A stretch of 64,000 nt of DNA from Escherichia coli (GTDB lineage: Bacteria > Pseudomonadota > Gammaproteobacteria > Enterobacterales > Enterobacteriaceae). The stretch lies in assembly GCF_030013595.1 (NCBI RefSeq), contig NZ_CP122768.1. One strand, given 5' to 3'. A model generated the notes under the pieces. It was not told the DNA's origin. It saw nothing but the letters and a program-made list of their open reading frames with translations, and ran no database searches. The position numbers and the translations under genes were made by a program. Positions 1 to 12,034 of this stretch are shown piece by piece (the first letter of the stretch is position 1; every line of letters begins with the position of its first letter).

Positions 1-736
<736 letters not shown>

Positions 737-762
737 AACTTAGTTCGTTTTAAAGATTCTGC

Positions 763-787
763 AGACACTGTCTGCAGAATTCGAAAT
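763..787. repeat. Near-perfect 25-bp palindrome (ATTCTGCAGACA C TGTCTGCAGAAT) in the convergent nanQ/yhcG gap
   Basis: Read directly: 11-bp arms around a single central base; core CAGAC-N-GTCTG shared with the three palindromes inside yhcG; no flanking T-run. Confidence 0.6.
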
Positions 788-795
788 TGCTGAAA

Positions 796-1923
796 TTATC
801 GGCGTCTATAGCCTTCCTCTAGCACCGCCTGTGTTCGAACGAGTTCATCCGCGAGTCGTTTTTCATCAGGTAGTTGCATCTTATATTCACTCGCCAGAAC
901 GGTGTTAGGCAAACCAGCCAGTGCATAATGCGCTTCTCCGACTCCTTTCTCTGCACAGAGAATCAGACCGATGGGCGGATTTTCATCCGGTAGCGTCCAG
1001 TGCTCTTTGGCGTAGTTGAGATACATATTCATCTGTCCGGCATCGCTATAGCTAAATTTGCCCACTTTTAGATCGACGATTAGCAGGCAGCGTAAACGGC
1101 GGTGGAAAAACAGCAGATCGACCCGAAACCAGTTGTCATCAATGCGTAACCTTCGCTGCCGACCAACAAAGGCAAAATCATCCCCAAGTTCCAGCATGAA
1201 ATCCATCAGGTGGTTGATCAGCGCCTCCTCAAAATCGGATTCTGAGTATTCATCTTTCAATTCCAGAAATTCGAGCACAAAGGGATCGCGTATCGCCTGC
1301 TGCGGAAGAATATGCATCTCGGCAGGAGCGTGTTGTTGCAGCATGGCTGATTTATCATGTGACAGTAGTGTTCGCTCATAAAATTGGGTCGCAATTTGCC
1401 GCTCTAGCTGGCGGACAGACCAACCACAGCGGAGCGTCTCTTTTTCATAAAAGCTGCGGGCGTCAGCGTTTTTAACGGAAAGTAGACGGACGTAGGTGGA
1501 CCAGGGCAGGGGGAAAGATTTGGCAGACAGCGTCTGCCAAATCTTTGCCGATGGGAATTCTGCAGACGGTGTCTGCGGCATTCCCAATGGTGTTAATTCG
1601 CCAGACACTGTCTGGCGAATTTCAACATGTTGAAAAAAGAGGTAAAAAAGCCTCATTTGGCGTAAGTTTTTTGCAGAGAACCCACGCTTATACCTTAGAC
1701 TTAAATCCTTTGATAGTCGCTTGATTAGCTGCGCACCATACGCAGCCCTGGCCTCACCGCCTTGTTCAAATTCGACAATTCGTCGGCCAATTTCCCTGTA
1801 CGTCGCGGTCATTAACGCGTTAACGCTACGTACCGTTTCCGTTCGGGCGCTATCGACCAGATGAATAATGCCGTCGTGGATTTGCTGGTAGCCTGCTGTG
1901 GTTCTCTCTGAGAGCGATTCCAT
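796..1923 (-). CDS. yhcG: DUF1016 / PDDEXK nuclease-like protein YhcG
   Basis: 375-aa ORF; matches YhcG in length and sequence; C-terminal half contains a PD-(D/E)xK-like motif (…LLIVDLKVGKF…). Confidence 0.85.
   Translation of the reverse strand: MESLSERTTAGYQQIHDGIIHLVDSARTETVRSVNALMTATYREIGRRIVEFEQGGEARAAYGAQLIKRLSKDLSLRYKRGFSAKNLRQMRLFYLFFQHVEIRQTVSGELTPLGMPQTPSAEFPSAKIWQTLSAKSFPLPWSTYVRLLSVKNADARSFYEKETLRCGWSVRQLERQIATQFYERTLLSHDKSAMLQQHAPAEMHILPQQAIRDPFVLEFLELKDEYSESDFEEALINHLMDFMLELGDDFAFVGRQRRLRIDDNWFRVDLLFFHRRLRCLLIVDLKVGKFSYSDAGQMNMYLNYAKEHWTLPDENPPIGLILCAEKGVGEAHYALAGLPNTVLASEYKMQLPDEKRLADELVRTQAVLEEGYRRR
1517..1621. repeat. Three tandem hairpin palindromes inside the yhcG coding sequence (12-15-bp arms, 3-nt loops, shared CAGAC-NNN-GTCTG core)
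   Basis: Read directly: 1517-1543 GATTTGGCAGAC-AGC-GTCTGCCAAATC (perfect); 1553-1585 GGGAATTCTGCAGAC-GGT-GTCTGCGGCATTCCC (2 mismatches); 1595-1621 AATTCGCCAGAC-ACT-GTCTGGCGAATT (perfect). In frame, encoding a low-complexity segment (…TPLGMPQTPSAEFPSAKIWQTLSAK…). Confidence 0.7.
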
Positions 1924-2106
1924 TATCTGTCCCTTTTTATGGCGCTGTGTTGAATAATGGAATCAGCTATACGCCGGGCATCTGCCGGTAACAATCCAGA
2001 TGAGCGTATTACATTGGTTTTCTTCAGATTATGCGAGGCGCTTTCCAGAAAGAAAGGAGAATTTCAGCGCCGACTCTTTTCTGAGGAGGCGGCGCTGGGA
2101 CAGAGC

Positions 2107-3537
<1,431 letters not shown>

Positions 3538-6500
3538 TTACTGCGCCTGCACGCGCAACTCTGCTGCGCTACGACTACGGTGACCCAGCAGTGCTTTTAC
3601 ATCACTGGACTTCGGTTTAACCAGCGCAAATTTAGTGGCGAAGGTTGACCAGTTCGCCAGAATCTCTTCACCACGCTGAGAACCGGTATGCTGCACATGC
3701 TCGGTGATAAGTCCACGCAGATGCTCTTCATGGATCGCCAAATCGTCAACGCTTAAGACCTCGACCAGTTCCGGGTTAACGCGTTTGCGGAAATCGCCGC
3801 TTTCATCGAGAACGTAAGCGAAGCCGCCAGTCATGCCCGCGCCGAAGTTAACGCCGGTTTTACCCAGAATACAGACAATACCGCCCGTCATATATTCACA
3901 GCCGTTGTCGCCAATGCCTTCTACCACGGTGATAGCACCGGAGTTACGCACGCCGAAACGTTCACCCGCGCGGCCTGCGGCATACAGACGACCACCGGTC
4001 GCGCCATACAGGCAGGTGTTGCCGATAATACTTGCTTCATGGCTGCGGAAGGCTGAGCCAACCGGAGGGCGAATGGCGATTAAGCCGCCCGCCATGCCTT
4101 TACCGACATAGTCGTTGGCATCACCGGTCAGGTACAGTTCCACGCCGCCCGCGTTCCACACACCGAAGCTCTGGCCTGCGGTGCCGTTGAAGTACGCTTT
4201 GATCGGATCGGCTGCCAGACCCTGATCGCCGTGCGTCTGGGCGATATAGCCTGAAAGCGACGCGCCGACAGAACGGTCGGTGTTGCGAATATCGAACCAG
4301 AAGGTTTTGCTCTGACGCTCATCGACAAACGGTTTTGCCTGTTGCAGCAACTGTGCGTTCAGCAGGCCGTTATCAAACGGCGGGTTGTTTTCGGTACAGT
4401 AGAGCGCCTTACCTGGATGCGGCTCAGCGGTCTCCAGCAGTTTCGACAGCGCCAGTTTCTGCTGTTTGGCGGTGAAACCGTCCAGCTCTTTCAGCAGGTC
4501 GGTGCGACCAATCAGATCCACCAGACGCGTTACCCCCAGCTGTGCCATCAGCTCGCGGGTTTCACGGGCGATAAACTCAAAGTAATTAGTCACCTTGAAC
4601 GGCAGGCCGTGATAGTGATTCTTACGCAGTTTGTCATCCTGAGTTGCTACACCCGTCGCGCAGTTGTTCAGGTGGCAAATACGCAGATATTTACAGCCGA
4701 GCGCCACCATCGGACCGGTGCCGAAGCCGAAGCTTTCTGCGCCGAGAATCGCCGCTTTGATGATATCGACACCCGTTTTCAGGCCGCCATCGACCTGCAA
4801 ACGAATTTTATGACGCAAGCCGTTGGCAACCAGCGCCTGCTGGGTTTCCACCAGACCGAGTTCCCACGGACAGCCTGCGTATTTCACCGATGAAAGCGGG
4901 CTTGCGCCGGTGCCGCCGTCATAGCCTGCGATGGTGATTAAATCGGCATAAGCTTTCGCCACACCGGTCGCGATGGTGCCTACTCCCGGTTCGGACACCA
5001 GCTTCACGGAGATCATCGCTTTCGGGTTAACCTGCTTGAGGTCGAAAATCAGCTGCGCTAAGTCCTCGATAGAGTAGATATCGTGGTGCGGCGGCGGGGA
5101 GATCAGCGTCACGCCTGGCACGGAATAACGCAGTTTGGCGATGTACGGCGTGACTTTATCACCTGGCAACTGACCGCCTTCGCCCGGTTTCGCGCCCTGG
5201 GCGACTTTAATCTGAATGACGTCGGCATTGACCAGATACGCCGGAGTAACCCCAAAGCGACCGGAAGCCACCTGCTTGATGCGCGACACTTTGTTGGTGC
5301 CGTAGCGTGCCGGATCTTCGCCGCCTTCACCGGAGTTAGAGTTGCCGCCGATGCTGTTCATCGCTTCAGCCAGCGCCTCGTGGGCTTCCGGGCTTAACGC
5401 GCCGATAGACATCGCAGCGGTATCGAAGCGTTTAAACAGTTCGCTTGCCGGTTCAACATCAGCAATGTTGACCGCGTTTTCACCCGGCGTAATTGCCAGC
5501 AGATCGCGCAGCGTGGTTGCCGGACGCTCATTAACCAGCTTCGCGTATTCCTGATAGTCGCTGTACTCGCCGCTCTGTACCGCCTGCTGCAGTGTGCGCA
5601 CCACGTCCGGGTTGTAGGCGTGGTATTCGCCGCCGTGCACATATTTCAGCAGGCCGCCCTGGCTGATGGGCTTACGCGCCAGCCAGGCACGTTTCGACAG
5701 ATTCAGCAGATCCTGCTGGAAGTCTTCAAAGCTCGCCCCGCCAATGCGGCTAACAGCGCCCTGGAAGCACAGGCCTACGACATCATCGTGCAGACCGACC
5801 GCTTCAAACAGTTTCGAGCAGCGGTAAGAGGCGATGGTGGAGATGCCCATTTTGGACATGATTTTGTACAAGCCTTTGTTGATGCCGTTACGGTAGTTGA
5901 GCATCACGGTACGATAATCTTTGGCAATCGCGTGGGTGTCTACCAGGCGGCCCAGCGTTTCATAGGCAAGGTACGGATAAATAGCCGTCGCACCGAAGCC
6001 CAGCAACACGGCGAAATGGTGCGGATCGCGGGCGCTGGCGGTTTCGACGATGATGTTGGCATCGCAACGCAAGCTTTGATCGACCAGACGGGTCTGGATC
6101 GCGCCAACCGCCATCGGAGCCGGAACCGGCAGGCGATCTTTAGCGATATTCCGGTCGGAGAGCACCAGCAGCACGGTGCCGCTACGTACCATTTTTTCGG
6201 CTTTGTCGCACAGCTCTTTGACCGTCGCTTCGAGCGTGGTTTTGGTGACGTCAAAGGTTATATCCAGTGTATCTGCGCGGTAGTGCTCCTCTTTCATCGT
6301 CGTGAGCTGTTTGAAATCGGAGTAGAGCAGAATCGGCGATTTAAAACTTAAACGGTGCGCCTGGCCCTCTGCTTCACAGAAGACGTTCATTTCACGCCCG
6401 ATGCTGGTGGCGAGCGACATAACATGCGCTTCACGCAGTGGGTCGATTGGCGGGTTAGTCACCTGGGCAAATTGCTGGCGGAAGTAGTCGTAAATAATGC

Positions 6501-7998
6501 GCGGCTGACTGGAGAGCACGGCGAATGGGGTGTCGTCGCCCATCGAACCGACCGCTTCCTGACCGTTTTCGCCCAGTACGCGAATTACGGAGTCCAGCTC
6601 TTCCGCGCTGTAGTTAAACTGTTTCTGGTAGCTGGCAAGTGTGTCGTCGTCCAGTTCGCGGCTACCCACTTCTTCATCGGGCAGATCTTCAAACGGTACC
6701 AGTCGGCGGACGTTTTTCTCCATCCACTCTTTATATGGATGGCGGCTTTTCAGATCGTCATCAGTTTCTGCCGAGTGCAGAATGCGCCCACTGCGAGTGT
6801 CGATCACCATCAGTTCGCCTGGCCCGACGCGGCCTTTTTCGACCACTTCGTCAGGCTGATAATCCCAGATGCCGACTTCAGAGGCGCAGGTGATGAGCTT
6901 ATCTTTGGTGATGACGTAGCGCGCCGGACGCAGACCGTTACGGTCGAGGTTACAGGCGGCAAAACGACCGTCAGACATCACGATGCCTGCCGGGCCATCC
7001 CACGGCTCCATATGCATGGAGTTAAAGTCAAAGAAGGCACGCAGTTCCGGGTCCATATCCGGGTTGTTCTGCCAGGCGGGTGGTACTAACAGACGCATGG
7101 CGCGGATGATATCCATCCCGCCTGCCAGCAGCAGTTCCAGCATGTTATCCATGGAACTGGAGTCAGAACCGGTTTCGTTGACGAACGGCGCGGCGTCGTG
7201 CAGGTCAGGGATCAGCGGCGTCTGGAATTTATAGGTACGCGCACGCGCCCATTGGCGGTTACCGGTGATGGTGTTGATTTCACCGTTATGCGCCAGGTAG
7301 CGGAACGGCTGCGCCAGCGGCCAGCGCGGTACGGTGTTAGTGGAGAAGCGCTGGTGGAACAGGCAAATGGCCGATTCCAGACGCAGGTCCGCAAGATCCA
7401 GATAAAAGCGCGGCAGATCCGCCGGCATACACAGACCTTTATAGATGTTCACCAGATTCGACAGGCTACAGACGTAGAAGTCTTTGTCGGCTTCGAGACG
7501 CTTTTCAATGCGGCGGCGGGCGATAAACAGACGGCGCTCCATATCGCGCGGACGCCAGCCTGCCGGGGCGTTCACAAAAATTTGCTCAATGCGTGGCAGA
7601 GAGGAGAGGGCGATTTCACCCAGCACGCCTTCGTTGGTGGGGACATCACGCCAGCCCACAATCGATAAGGTTTCGCGTTGCAGCTCTTCTTCAACGATGC
7701 GGCGTGCGGCAGCGGCGAGTTCAGGATCTTTATTCAGGAAGAGCATCCCGACGGCGTAGTTTTTCGCTAAACGCCAACCGCGCTCCTGCGCAACGATGCG
7801 AAAAAAGCGATCCGGTTTTTGTAACAGCAAGCCGCAACCGTCACCGGTTTTACCATCGGCGAGAATCGCGCCACGGTGCTGCATGCGGGCCAGTGCGTGT
7901 ATTGCAGTACGCACTACCTTGTGGCTAGGTTCGCCTTCTATGTGGGCGATCAGGCCGAAACCACAGTTATCCCTCTCAAGGGATTTATCGTACAACAT
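3538..7998 (-). CDS. gltB: Glutamate synthase (NADPH) large subunit
   Basis: Long ORF (track start 8106); canonical 1486-aa protein begins at [15 protein letters not shown] (ATG at 7998), amidotransferase Cys follows; the ORF track over-extends upstream. Confidence 0.95.
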
Positions 7999-8672
7999 AT
8001 CGTGAACCTCCCCCAGGCTCTGCGGGAACCCCACTTCCGAACCGCTGCGCACGGGCACAGAAAGAGCGTGGCGACGGGGTTTGCGTGTCATACGCGCGCC
8101 TCGCATTCGCCCCCTTGTTGTCCTTTTCGCATCGGTTAATACGGTGAAGAGGGGATCTCAATTACTGCATAAATATGATGAGCAGGCTGCTCATCCAGAA
8201 AGCTTCCAGCGGATTTCCAACTTATCGGGAAAGCTGATACAGGTCAAATGGCAAGCTTATTGGTACAGAAATGTGCTTTAGCGCAAAATTCTTTATTAAA
8301 TGGCTGAAATTAAAGTGGATTTTATCTTTAAGGCTAAAAGGGAAGTCGTTAGAGAAACAGTCAATTCCTGACTGTCATAAAGGCGTGTTAACCCTTATCC
8401 TGCCTTGAACTGACGAGAAAACCAGCATTTTATACTGCCTTAATTGGTAATGACGTTTCATGCTACTGTTTTTGCCTAAAATCCATAAGGAGATAAAAAA
8501 ATCTGACACAAGATAAGCAAAAGTGATTTATGTGATTATGCATGAAATTTCGGTAATTTTGATTGATTATGCAGTTGATAAAAGCAGGCCGGGACGATTG
8601 ATCCAGGTCATCGCCGAATTGAGCTAAAAATGGCAGGCTTTGGCCTCTTTTCAAGGCGCGGTCTATCAGATT
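7999..8672. promoter_or_regulatory. Divergent gltB / yhcC control region: long AT-rich leader and promoter region
   Basis: About 670 bp of AT-rich non-coding DNA between divergent starts; gltBD is known to have a long leader with Lrp/IHF/CRP sites, but individual sites were not mapped here. Confidence 0.4.
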
Positions 8673-9602
8673 ATGCAGTTACAGAAATTAGTCAATATGT
8701 TTGGTGGTGATCTCACCCGTCGTTATGGGCAAAAGGTGCATAAGCTGACGCTGCACGGCGGTTTTAGCTGCCCTAACCGTGACGGTACCATCGGGCGTGG
8801 TGGCTGCACATTCTGTAATGTGGCCTCGTTTGCCGATGAAGCGCAGCAACATCGTTCCATTGCCGAACAACTGGCGCACCAGGCGAATTTAGTTAACCGC
8901 GCTAAACGCTATCTGGCCTACTTTCAGGCGTATACCAGCACCTTTGCGGAAGTTCAGGTGCTGCGTTCTATGTATCAGCAGGCGGTGAGCCAGGCCAATA
9001 TTGTCGGTTTGTGTGTTGGTACCCGCCCGGACTGCGTGCCGGATGCGGTGCTGGATCTGCTTTGCGAATATAAGGACCAGGGTTACGAAGTGTGGCTGGA
9101 GCTGGGGCTACAAACCGCCCACGACAAAACGCTGCATCGCATCAATCGCGGTCATGATTTTGCCTGTTATCAGCGCACGACGCAGCTGGCGCGTGAGCGT
9201 GGGCTGAAGGTGTGTTCTCACTTAATTGTCGGCCTGCCTGGCGAAGGGCAGGCTGAATGTTTGCAAACGCTGGAGCGAGTGGTTGAAACTGGCGTGGACG
9301 GCATAAAGCTGCATCCGCTGCATATTGTGAAAGGCAGCATTATGGCGAAAGCCTGGGAAGCGGGGCGTTTGAACGGTATTGAACTGGAGGATTACACGCT
9401 CACTGCCGGAGAAATGATTCGCCATACGCCACCGGAAGTGATCTACCACCGCATTTCCGCCAGCGCCCGTCGCCCGACGCTGCTTGCTCCTCTGTGGTGC
9501 GAAAATCGATGGACGGGAATGGTCGAGCTGGATCGCTATCTGAATGAACATGGCGTACAGGGATCGGCGCTGGGACGTCCGTGGCTACCTCCAACTGAGT
9601 AG
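8673..9602 (+). CDS. yhcC: Radical SAM family protein YhcC (TIGR01212-like)
   Basis: ORF track start 8640; canonical 309-aa protein starts at MQLQKLVNMFGG (ATG 8673); radical SAM Cys motif CPNRDGTIGRGGCTFC. Confidence 0.85.
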   Translation: MQLQKLVNMFGGDLTRRYGQKVHKLTLHGGFSCPNRDGTIGRGGCTFCNVASFADEAQQHRSIAEQLAHQANLVNRAKRYLAYFQAYTSTFAEVQVLRSMYQQAVSQANIVGLCVGTRPDCVPDAVLDLLCEYKDQGYEVWLELGLQTAHDKTLHRINRGHDFACYQRTTQLARERGLKVCSHLIVGLPGEGQAECLQTLERVVETGVDGIKLHPLHIVKGSIMAKAWEAGRLNGIELEDYTLTAGEMIRHTPPEVIYHRISASARRPTLLAPLWCENRWTGMVELDRYLNEHGVQGSALGRPWLPPTE

Positions 9603-9697: not shown

Positions 9698-12034
9698 ATG
9701 AAGCAAATTCGTCTGCTGGCGCAGTATTATGTTGACCTGATGATGAAGTTAGGTCTGGTGCGCTTCTCAATGTTGCTGGCGCTGGCCCTCGTCGTTCTTG
9801 CCATTGTGGTACAAATGGCGGTAACCATGGTGCTGCATGGTCAGGTCGAAAGCATTGATGTTATTCGTTCTATCTTCTTTGGTTTGCTGATTACGCCGTG
9901 GGCGGTCTACTTTCTATCGGTGGTCGTCGAGCAACTGGAGGAGTCACGGCAACGTCTGTCACGGCTGGTGCAAAAACTGGAGGAGATGCGCGAGCGCGAT
10001 TTGAGCCTCAACGTTCAGTTAAAAGATAATATTGCCCAGCTAAATCAGGAAATCGCCGTTCGTGAAAAAGCGGAAGCAGAACTGCAGGAAACCTTCGGCC
10101 AACTGAAAATTGAAATCAAAGAGCGCGAAGAGACACAAATTCAGCTCGAGCAGCAATCCTCATTCTTACGTTCCTTCCTTGATGCTTCACCCGACCTGGT
10201 TTTTTATCGTAACGAAGATAAAGAGTTTTCCGGCTGTAACCGCGCGATGGAGCTGCTGACCGGAAAAAGCGAAAAACAACTGGTTCACCTGAAACCTGCT
10301 GATGTTTACTCACCGGAAGCCGCTGCGAAAGTCATTGAAACCGATGAAAAAGTGTTCCGTCATAATGTGTCACTGACCTATGAGCAGTGGCTGGATTATC
10401 CCGACGGACGCAAAGCCTGCTTTGAAATCCGTAAAGTGCCGTACTACGACCGCGTGGGTAAACGTCACGGTTTGATGGGCTTTGGTCGCGACATTACCGA
10501 GCGTAAGCGGTATCAGGATGCACTTGAACGCGCCAGCCGCGACAAAACGACGTTTATTTCCACCATCAGTCACGAATTGCGTACACCGCTGAACGGTATC
10601 GTCGGCCTGAGCCGCATTCTGCTGGATACCGAACTCACCGCCGAGCAGGAAAAATATCTCAAAACCATCCATGTTTCGGCCGTCACGCTGGGGAATATCT
10701 TCAACGATATTATCGACATGGATAAGATGGAACGGCGTAAGGTCCAGCTTGATAATCAGCCGGTTGATTTCACCAGCTTCCTTGCCGATCTGGAAAATCT
10801 CTCCGCCTTGCAGGCGCAACAAAAAGGATTGCGCTTTAACCTGGAGCCTACGCTGCCATTACCGCATCAGGTCATTACCGACGGGACGCGTTTACGGCAG
10901 ATCCTGTGGAATCTCATCAGTAACGCCGTCAAATTCACCCAGCAAGGCCAGGTTACCGTGCGCGTGCGCTACGATGAAGGCGATATGCTGCATTTTGAAG
11001 TGGAAGACTCTGGTATCGGCATTCCGCAAGATGAGCTGGATAAAATCTTCGCCATGTATTACCAGGTGAAAGACAGTCATGGCGGTAAACCTGCCACTGG
11101 CACCGGTATTGGTCTGGCCGTTTCTCGTCGTCTGGCGAAAAATATGGGCGGCGATATTACGGTTACCAGCGAACAGGGCAAAGGTTCAACCTTTACGTTG
11201 ACGATCCACGCACCGTCGGTAGCAGAAGAGGTCGATGATGCGTTTGATGAAGACGATATGCCTTTACCGGCGCTGAATGTGCTGCTGGTGGAAGACATTG
11301 AACTGAACGTGATTGTTGCGCGTTCTGTGCTGGAAAAATTAGGTAACAGCGTTGATGTCGCCATGACCGGCAAGGCGGCGCTGGAGATGTTTAAACCGGG
11401 CGAATACGACCTGGTATTGCTGGATATTCAGTTGCCAGATATGACCGGGCTGGATATCTCTCGTGAACTGACGAAGCGTTATCCGCGCGAGGATTTACCG
11501 CCGCTGGTGGCCTTAACCGCTAACGTGCTGAAAGACAAACAAGAGTACCTCAATGCTGGAATGGATGATGTGCTGAGTAAGCCGCTTTCTGTTCCGGCGC
11601 TAACCGCGATGATCAAGAAATTCTGGGATACCCAGGATGATGAGGAAAGTACGGTGACGACAGAAGAGAACAGTAAATCAGAAGCATTGCTCGATATTCC
11701 CATGCTGGAACAGTATCTCGAACTTGTAGGACCGAAGCTGATCACCGACGGGTTAGCGGTGTTTGAGAAGATGATGCCGGGCTATGTCAGCGTGCTGGAG
11801 TCGAATCTGACGGCGCAGGATAAAAAAGGCATTGTTGAGGAAGGACATAAAATTAAAGGTGCGGCGGGGTCAGTGGGGTTACGCCATCTGCAACAGCTGG
11901 GTCAGCAAATTCAGTCTCCTGACCTTCCCGCCTGGGAAGATAACGTCGGTGAATGGATTGAAGAGATGAAAGAAGAGTGGCGTCACGACGTAGAAGTACT
12001 GAAAGCGTGGGTGGCAAAAGCCACTAAAAAATGA
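9698..12034 (+). CDS. arcB: Aerobic respiration control hybrid sensor histidine kinase ArcB
   Basis: 778-aa ORF with transmembrane N-terminus, PAS domain, H-box (SHELRTPLNG), receiver and HPt domains. Confidence 0.95.
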   Translation: MKQIRLLAQYYVDLMMKLGLVRFSMLLALALVVLAIVVQMAVTMVLHGQVESIDVIRSIFFGLLITPWAVYFLSVVVEQLEESRQRLSRLVQKLEEMRERDLSLNVQLKDNIAQLNQEIAVREKAEAELQETFGQLKIEIKEREETQIQLEQQSSFLRSFLDASPDLVFYRNEDKEFSGCNRAMELLTGKSEKQLVHLKPADVYSPEAAAKVIETDEKVFRHNVSLTYEQWLDYPDGRKACFEIRKVPYYDRVGKRHGLMGFGRDITERKRYQDALERASRDKTTFISTISHELRTPLNGIVGLSRILLDTELTAEQEKYLKTIHVSAVTLGNIFNDIIDMDKMERRKVQLDNQPVDFTSFLADLENLSALQAQQKGLRFNLEPTLPLPHQVITDGTRLRQILWNLISNAVKFTQQGQVTVRVRYDEGDMLHFEVEDSGIGIPQDELDKIFAMYYQVKDSHGGKPATGTGIGLAVSRRLAKNMGGDITVTSEQGKGSTFTLTIHAPSVAEEVDDAFDEDDMPLPALNVLLVEDIELNVIVARSVLEKLGNSVDVAMTGKAALEMFKPGEYDLVLLDIQLPDMTGLDISRELTKRYPREDLPPLVALTANVLKDKQEYLNAGMDDVLSKPLSVPALTAMIKKFWDTQDDEESTVTTEENSKSEALLDIPMLEQYLELVGPKLITDGLAVFEKMMPGYVSVLESNLTAQDKKGIVEEGHKIKGAAGSVGLRHLQQLGQQIQSPDLPAWEDNVGEWIEEMKEEWRHDVEVLKAWVAKATKK

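Follow-up and report, generated by a model that had tools for sequence, protein, structure and literature searches.

The nanQ-gltD site of Escherichia coli: a yhcG-gltD junction without the gltF-yhcADEF fimbrial block

Genes and features between nanQ and gltD

We analyzed a 64-kb stretch of an Escherichia coli genome (contig NZ_CP122768.1), referred to here as the window. The open reading frame list and the sequence give the gene order nanK' (to position 275, plus strand), nanQ, yhcG, gltD, and gltB. The features of the site are as follows.

272-736, plus strand: nanQ (yhcH), N-acetylneuraminate anomerase (NF040884, E 2e-70), conserved gene anchoring the variable site on the left
755-781, no strand: the palindrome PAL', a perfect 12+12 inverted repeat between the convergent nanQ and yhcG, centre 768
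796-1923, minus strand: yhcG, intact, 375 aa
1517-1543, 1556-1582, and 1595-1621, minus strand: three tandem palindromes (PAL) within the yhcG reading frame, centres 1530, 1569, and 1608, period 39 nt
1924-2051, minus strand: yhcG upstream region (promoter and 5' UTR), 128 bp held in common with the K-12 yhcF-yhcG spacer; K-12 homology stops at 2051
2052-2106, minus strand: segment next to gltD, unique to the fimbria-less allele; K-12 has 7,079 bp instead
2065-2097, minus strand: hairpin right after the gltD stop, arms 2065-2076 and 2086-2097
2107-3525, minus strand: gltD, 472 aa (TIGR01318, E 7e-271), conserved gene anchoring the variable site on the right
3538-8106, minus strand: gltB

The initial annotation had placed gltD about 180 bp from yhcG, with the gltF-yhcADEF block absent, and this was borne out. 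The spacer between the yhcG start (1923) and the gltD stop (2107) covers 1924-2106, or 183 bp, and holds no coding remnant according to the reading frame list and comparison with fimbrial loci. The sole open reading frame of at least 40 aa touching it (1957-2274, plus strand) runs antisense into gltD. Searches by tblastn with K-12 GltF, YhcA, YhcD, and YhcF gave no match anywhere in the 64-kb window. The usher gene yhcD and the chaperone gene yhcA of the K-12 yhc beta-class chaperone-usher locus are both missing from the window, and the DUF1120 subunit genes gltF and yhcF do not lie between gltD and yhcG. The same result led us to reject a move of the K-12 block to elsewhere within the window. 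Compared with the window as DNA, the 7,079 bp specific to K-12 gave a single match, at a palindrome of 29 bp within yhcG.

The stable hairpin at 2065-2097 is conserved, and in E. whittamii its stem is kept through a compensatory C-G to T-A change. A minus-strand fold of 2035-2112 had an energy of -23.6 kcal/mol (z -2.09). The loop exceeds 8 nt and the U-tract tail, AAAUUCUCCUUUCUUUC, is interrupted; a simple terminator scan made no call. We predict that this hairpin is probably the gltBD terminator. The gltBD operon of the yhcG-only allele would then end at its own hairpin, and the remaining 128 bp of the spacer would be the upstream region of yhcG. That region carries the motifs AGCTATACGC, CGTATTACAT, and TGCGAGGCGCTTTCCAGAA, which are kept across genera in the spacer alignment. 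Consensus promoter and terminator scans of the spacer returned nothing useful, and no Rfam family was found in 600-2400 at E values up to 1.

A perfect 11-bp inverted repeat, 1916-1926 and 1954-1964 (GATTCCATTAT and ATAATGGAATC), spans the yhcG start codon, with a Shine-Dalgarno-like AAGGGA in its 27-nt loop. Types A and B of the locus (defined below) both retain this repeat, which could occlude translation initiation of yhcG. A candidate antisense RNA, G0-10703, is reported to overlap the K-12 yhcG 5' UTR by 128 bp and to occur in only some E. coli (PMC7967276). This restriction fits the K-12-specific version of the 128-bp segment; the window has the other version.

YhcG is 97.3% identical to its K-12 counterpart and combines PF17761 (DUF1016_N, residues 19-184, E 1.8e-39) with PF06250 (YhcG_C, PD-(D/E)XK, residues 208-360, E 1.8e-56). 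It has no NCBIfam family and matches the PADLOC model PDC-S02 (PDLC04807) at E 1.2e-133. Based on these profile matches, YhcG is a candidate defence nuclease, and PDC-S02 is itself only a candidate system in PADLOC.

The junction in K-12, in E. coli, and in related genera

In the annotated K-12 record the order is gltB-gltD-gltF-yhcA-yhcD-yhcE::IS5-yhcF-yhcG-nanQ. The gene order given in the initial annotation was therefore right, and the observation named there as able to overturn it, a K-12 gltD directly adjoining yhcG, was not made, since the block lies between the two genes. Aligned with blastn, window positions 600-2051 correspond to K-12 locus positions 9899-11351 at 94.5% identity. Homology ends at 2051 and resumes at 2105, and 2105-2300 is 97.4% identical, with gltD matching up to its stop codon. 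The intervening 53 bp (2052-2104) have no K-12 counterpart by blastn; at that position K-12 has 7,079 bp, or 5,883 bp without IS5.

The K-12 block has a GC content of 43-45%, versus 57% for gltBD. Read from yhcG to gltD, it comprises a small hairpin with yhcF, then yhcE, yhcD, yhcA, and gltF, a 560-bp AT-rich leader, a 27-bp palindrome, and finally 14 bp abutting the gltD stop. Its borders, GCTTTCCTGAAAC|ATTAACC and CCTCGC|TTAAAC, share no direct repeat, and neither target-site duplication nor terminal repeats, integrase, or tRNA are present there. Its sole transposase is that of the IS5 in yhcE, which some genomes with an otherwise complete block lack. Lacking border repeats, an integrase, a tRNA, and a transposase other than that of IS5, the block does not fit an origin as a transposon, insertion sequence, or integrase-borne island. 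The short direct repeats that had been proposed at the junction were likewise not found, either flanking the K-12-specific DNA or across the junction in the window spacer.

We then sorted 5426 complete E. coli genomes, a biased collection, by the state of the site. The contiguous junction of the window, type A, was called from a match across the junction at no less than 80% coverage and was found in 3141 of the 5426, among them O157:H7, E. coli B, and IAI39. The window itself has the corresponding contiguous yhcG-gltD spacer of ~183 bp with the 53-bp hairpin segment. Type B, with 80% or more of the K-12 block present, accounted for 1106 of the 5426, some of them without IS5, and nanQ lay directly beside gltD without yhcG (type C) in 947 of the 5426. 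Within this biased collection, type A is thus the commonest E. coli arrangement and K-12 represents a minority state. A whole-yhcG query found full-length yhcG in 3347 genomes of types A and B, so that by subtraction about 900 type A genomes, such as E. coli B, BL21, and O104:H4, have a truncated yhcG.

In E. coli B, BL21, O104:H4, and ~900 others, the 3' 730 bp of yhcG together with PAL' are replaced by an insert of ~470 bp (8348-8819 of locus L070 in E. coli B, corresponding to window positions 737-1518). The insert encodes a 101-aa reading frame that is annotated as a transposase and has no NCBIfam match. The breakpoint coincides exactly with one edge of PAL copy 1 within the gene.

For other species, one genome per species was fetched through the NanQ anchor and the neighbouring genes were mapped. 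In Enterobacter, Lelliottia, Huaxiibacter, Trabulsiella, Siccibacter, and some Citrobacter, nanQ and gltD are convergent across a spacer of ~45 bp. yhcG lies between them in Escherichia sp. E1V33, E. whittamii, further genomes labelled E. coli, Pseudocitrobacter vendiensis, and Citrobacter amalonaticus, and also, with extra genes, in Salmonella arizonae and C. gillenii. None of these NanQ-anchored representatives has the fimbrial genes.

The 183-bp spacer itself extends beyond E. coli. Including its 53 bp and hairpin, it is colinear throughout in the E. albertii type strain, E. whittamii, Escherichia sp. E1V33, and P. vendiensis. It aligns end to end with loci L005-L009 and L016, in which the 53-bp segment is conserved. 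Positions 796-2238 of the window align with P. vendiensis in a single colinear match at 78%, and in the E. albertii type strain a yhcG remnant is followed by an intact type A spacer. Searched for a counterpart of the 53 bp, the fimbrial loci of K-12, E. marmotae, E. albertii-like genomes, Citrobacter, and Kluyvera yielded only chance 10- to 12-mers, and so did the type C locus.

A search with YhcD located the fimbrial allele outside E. coli. Ushers were 82% identical in some E. albertii, 67% in E. marmotae, and 56-57% in Citrobacter and Kluyvera. The operons of E. albertii and E. marmotae are oriented as in K-12 and sit between gltD and nanQ; yhcG is absent from the E. albertii-like loci and degraded in E. 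marmotae. In Citrobacter (L078, 8465-13619) and Kluyvera (L080, 6486-13601) the operon abuts gltD in inverted orientation, convergent with it. In Kluyvera the operon includes three DUF1120 subunit genes in tandem, and the nan operon is not next to it.

In gltBD, K-12 and E. coli B share 99.7% identity, but across the 5' end of yhcG and the adjoining 128 bp they diverge by 13-25%. For these 128 bp and their junction with the yhcF hairpin, K-12 groups with E. marmotae. The divergence and this grouping show that the two alleles have long been separate. The fimbrial allele, with its diverged copies in other species, is old at the site as well.

When K-12 is set against E. coli B more widely, nanR-nanT and gltBD are near-identical, and nanE to nanQ (L001, 8500-10035, versus L070; from just left of the window start to 736) differs by ~3%. 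From this level, divergence rises to 13-25% at the yhcG 5' end. The divergent stretch from nanE to yhcG has the appearance of a recombined tract that goes with the type B allele. The sspB-nanR interval, outside the window and ~6 kb from the site, has a second presence/absence polymorphism. A C4-dicarboxylate transporter gene annotated dcuC is present there in K-12 (L001, 2813-4180) and E. coli B. It is absent from type C strain 09-02E (L002, 6352-6460) and from E. marmotae and the E. albertii-like contig (together L074 and L075).

Palindromes in and beside yhcG

The four palindrome copies in the window belong to a 27- to 29-bp family of the form AATTC-NNN-CAGAC-NNN-GTCTG-N'N'N'-GAATT. The three internal copies encode a 13-aa repeat (IWQTLSAKS / GMPQTPSAEF / EIRQTVSGEL). 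The 137 positions of the Pfam DUF1016_N model are stretched over YhcG residues 19-184. The number of copies within yhcG is one in Citrobacter and Salmonella and two or three in Escherichia and Pseudocitrobacter. The family is confined to this locus. We rejected a genome-wide repeat comparable to REP or ERIC, as the median genome has PAL at 2 places and the maximum is 5. Among the matches listed, all those with annotation lie in yhcG, and within the window only the yhcG copies match.

Across 27 distinct copies from 16 loci, preselected for at least 9 of 13 palindromic matches, 97.5% of cells pair, and the three middle base pairs covary. Cells changed on both sides numbered 33, against 12.4 ± 2.3 in shuffles of these preselected copies, and 0 of 500 shuffles reached the observed value. 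Template-switch correction of quasi-palindromes could mimic selection in producing this covariation.

Palindrome copies also coincide with the ends of several rearrangements. In the E. albertii type strain, the deletion in yhcG has its left breakpoint at PAL'. A PAL copy stands at the breakpoint where the 3' part of yhcG is replaced by the 470-bp insert in E. coli B, BL21, and O104:H4, and another at the breakpoint of the yhcG remnant of E. marmotae. The single-PAL arrangements of Pseudocitrobacter faecalis and of E. coli type C are possible deletion scars. PAL copies mark the breakpoints of several independent rearrangements.

One reading of these positions, which combine 13-codon tandem repeats inside yhcG with cassette borders, is that the palindromes are functional hairpin or cruciform elements of a mobile or self-rearranging yhcG defence cassette, perhaps recognised by the YhcG nuclease, and that they drive repeated insertion, deletion, and replacement events from which the alleles of the nanQ-gltD site arise. 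We consider this speculative and unlikely. The PAL family is the sole unusual thing at the locus. It could usefully serve as a small model of how palindromes accompany rearrangement within a coding gene.

Origin of the arrangement and relation to known systems

We interpret the window as the yhcG-only, type A allele of a multi-state nanQ-gltD site, one that very probably never held the operon between yhcG and gltD. The argument rests on the 53 bp at 2052-2104. Being conserved across species and absent from the fimbrial alleles, this segment could not have been produced by deletion from a K-12-like allele. The initial annotation had left a choice between a clean deletion and an ancestral uninserted state, and for this reason the uninserted state is supported and the clean deletion rejected. 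"Ancestral" applies to the allele and not to the whole site, because the fimbrial allele is also old and the deeper outgroups have neither yhcG nor fimbriae.

In type B, a low-GC beta-class chaperone-usher operon (gltF-yhcA-yhcD-yhcE-yhcF), together with its leader, palindrome, and 14 bp, stands in place of the 53-55 bp. This allele may have been assembled by entry of the operon into an A-like allele or by entry of a yhcG cassette into a fimbria-only allele. Type C shares its 14-bp gltD-adjacent end with type B, and a simple PAL-mediated deletion from type A, which does not fit these 14 bp, was rejected. We infer that whole alleles are swapped through homologous recombination in the core genes on either side, nan and gltBD; this would account for the patchy distribution.

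Such exchange could also have happened in the window's own ancestry. An ancestor with type B or the empty type C might have taken up the whole yhcG-only allele through recombination in nan and gltBD, with another E. coli or Escherichia lineage as donor. The various states are all spread across Escherichia species: a type A remnant and the fimbria-only allele both occur in E. albertii, type C occurs in E. coli and in Escherichia sp. MOD1-EC7003, and type B occurs in E. coli and E. marmotae. The tract of raised divergence between K-12 and B, from nanE to yhcG within otherwise near-identical DNA, also points this way, and an ancestor once of type B would agree with the fimbrial operon being an old resident of the site. 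However, from nanK to gltB the window is 95-97% identical to both K-12 and B and shows no obvious jump in divergence at the junction, and we regard a replacement in this lineage as improbable. It is in any case compatible with the yhcG-only interpretation, as the DNA present would still be the allele that never received the operon.

That a K-12-like lineage lost gltF-yhcADEF in a single excision leaving the 183-bp spacer is very hard to sustain: the K-12 order is real and the site does lose DNA, as the yhcG remnants of the E. albertii type strain and E. marmotae attest, but excision cannot create the 53 bp at 2052-2104 that other species and Pseudocitrobacter conserve, K-12 has 14 bp and a palindrome beside gltD instead, the common 128 bp differs by 13-25% between alleles even in strains as related as K-12 and B, and no flanking repeats could mediate excision to this product.

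The arrangement is real but ordinary and matters little for the window itself, and the sporadic distribution of yhc has already been published. K-12 is an atypical reference at the nanQ-gltD site. gltF does not belong to the core of the glutamate synthase operon, and in most E. coli the gltBD genes run up to a hairpin of their own, the predicted terminator. Neither recent gain alone nor loss alone describes Yhc; it is better seen as an old allele, kept patchily, at a hotspot with several states.

Compared with K-12 MG1655 (type B), the window is colinear through nanK, nanQ, PAL', yhcG, the 128 bp upstream of yhcG, gltD, and gltB. It differs in having 53-55 bp with a hairpin where K-12 has 7,079 bp, and the common 128 bp is a separate, diverged version. 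The direct nanQ-gltD adjacency of type C, which is the general state in Enterobacter, Lelliottia, Trabulsiella, Siccibacter, and others, has the same convergent anchors as the window and no yhcG. In the deep outgroups the spacer is 45 bp with a plain GCCGGATGG hairpin and neither yhcG nor fimbriae, whereas E. coli type C and Escherichia sp. MOD1-EC7003 have a single PAL and the same 14 bp beside gltD as K-12. YhcG shares its domain architecture and a strong profile match with the DUF1016 PD-(D/E)XK proteins of PDC-S02, and differs from them by two extra copies of the palindrome-encoded 13-aa repeat.

Yhc has been described as sporadic in E. coli, with ancient loss by most strains versus recent gain left open (Wurpel et al. 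2013, PMC3559732). All yhc carriers in the enterotoxigenic E. coli (ETEC) set examined belonged to phylogroup A (PMC5216030). Most E. coli are without yhc, and in the ETEC set IS5 is missing from yhc outside K-12 (PMC3559732; PMC5216030). Our counts agree with the sporadic type of Wurpel et al. 2013, with the block in 1106 of 5426 genomes of our collection and some copies without IS5. Beyond that work, we find diverged same-site copies in E. albertii, E. marmotae, Citrobacter, and Kluyvera. Our modest addition to the question posed there is that, alongside the Yhc allele, the comparisons show an equally old allele without Yhc, one that very probably never held the operon between yhcG and gltD.
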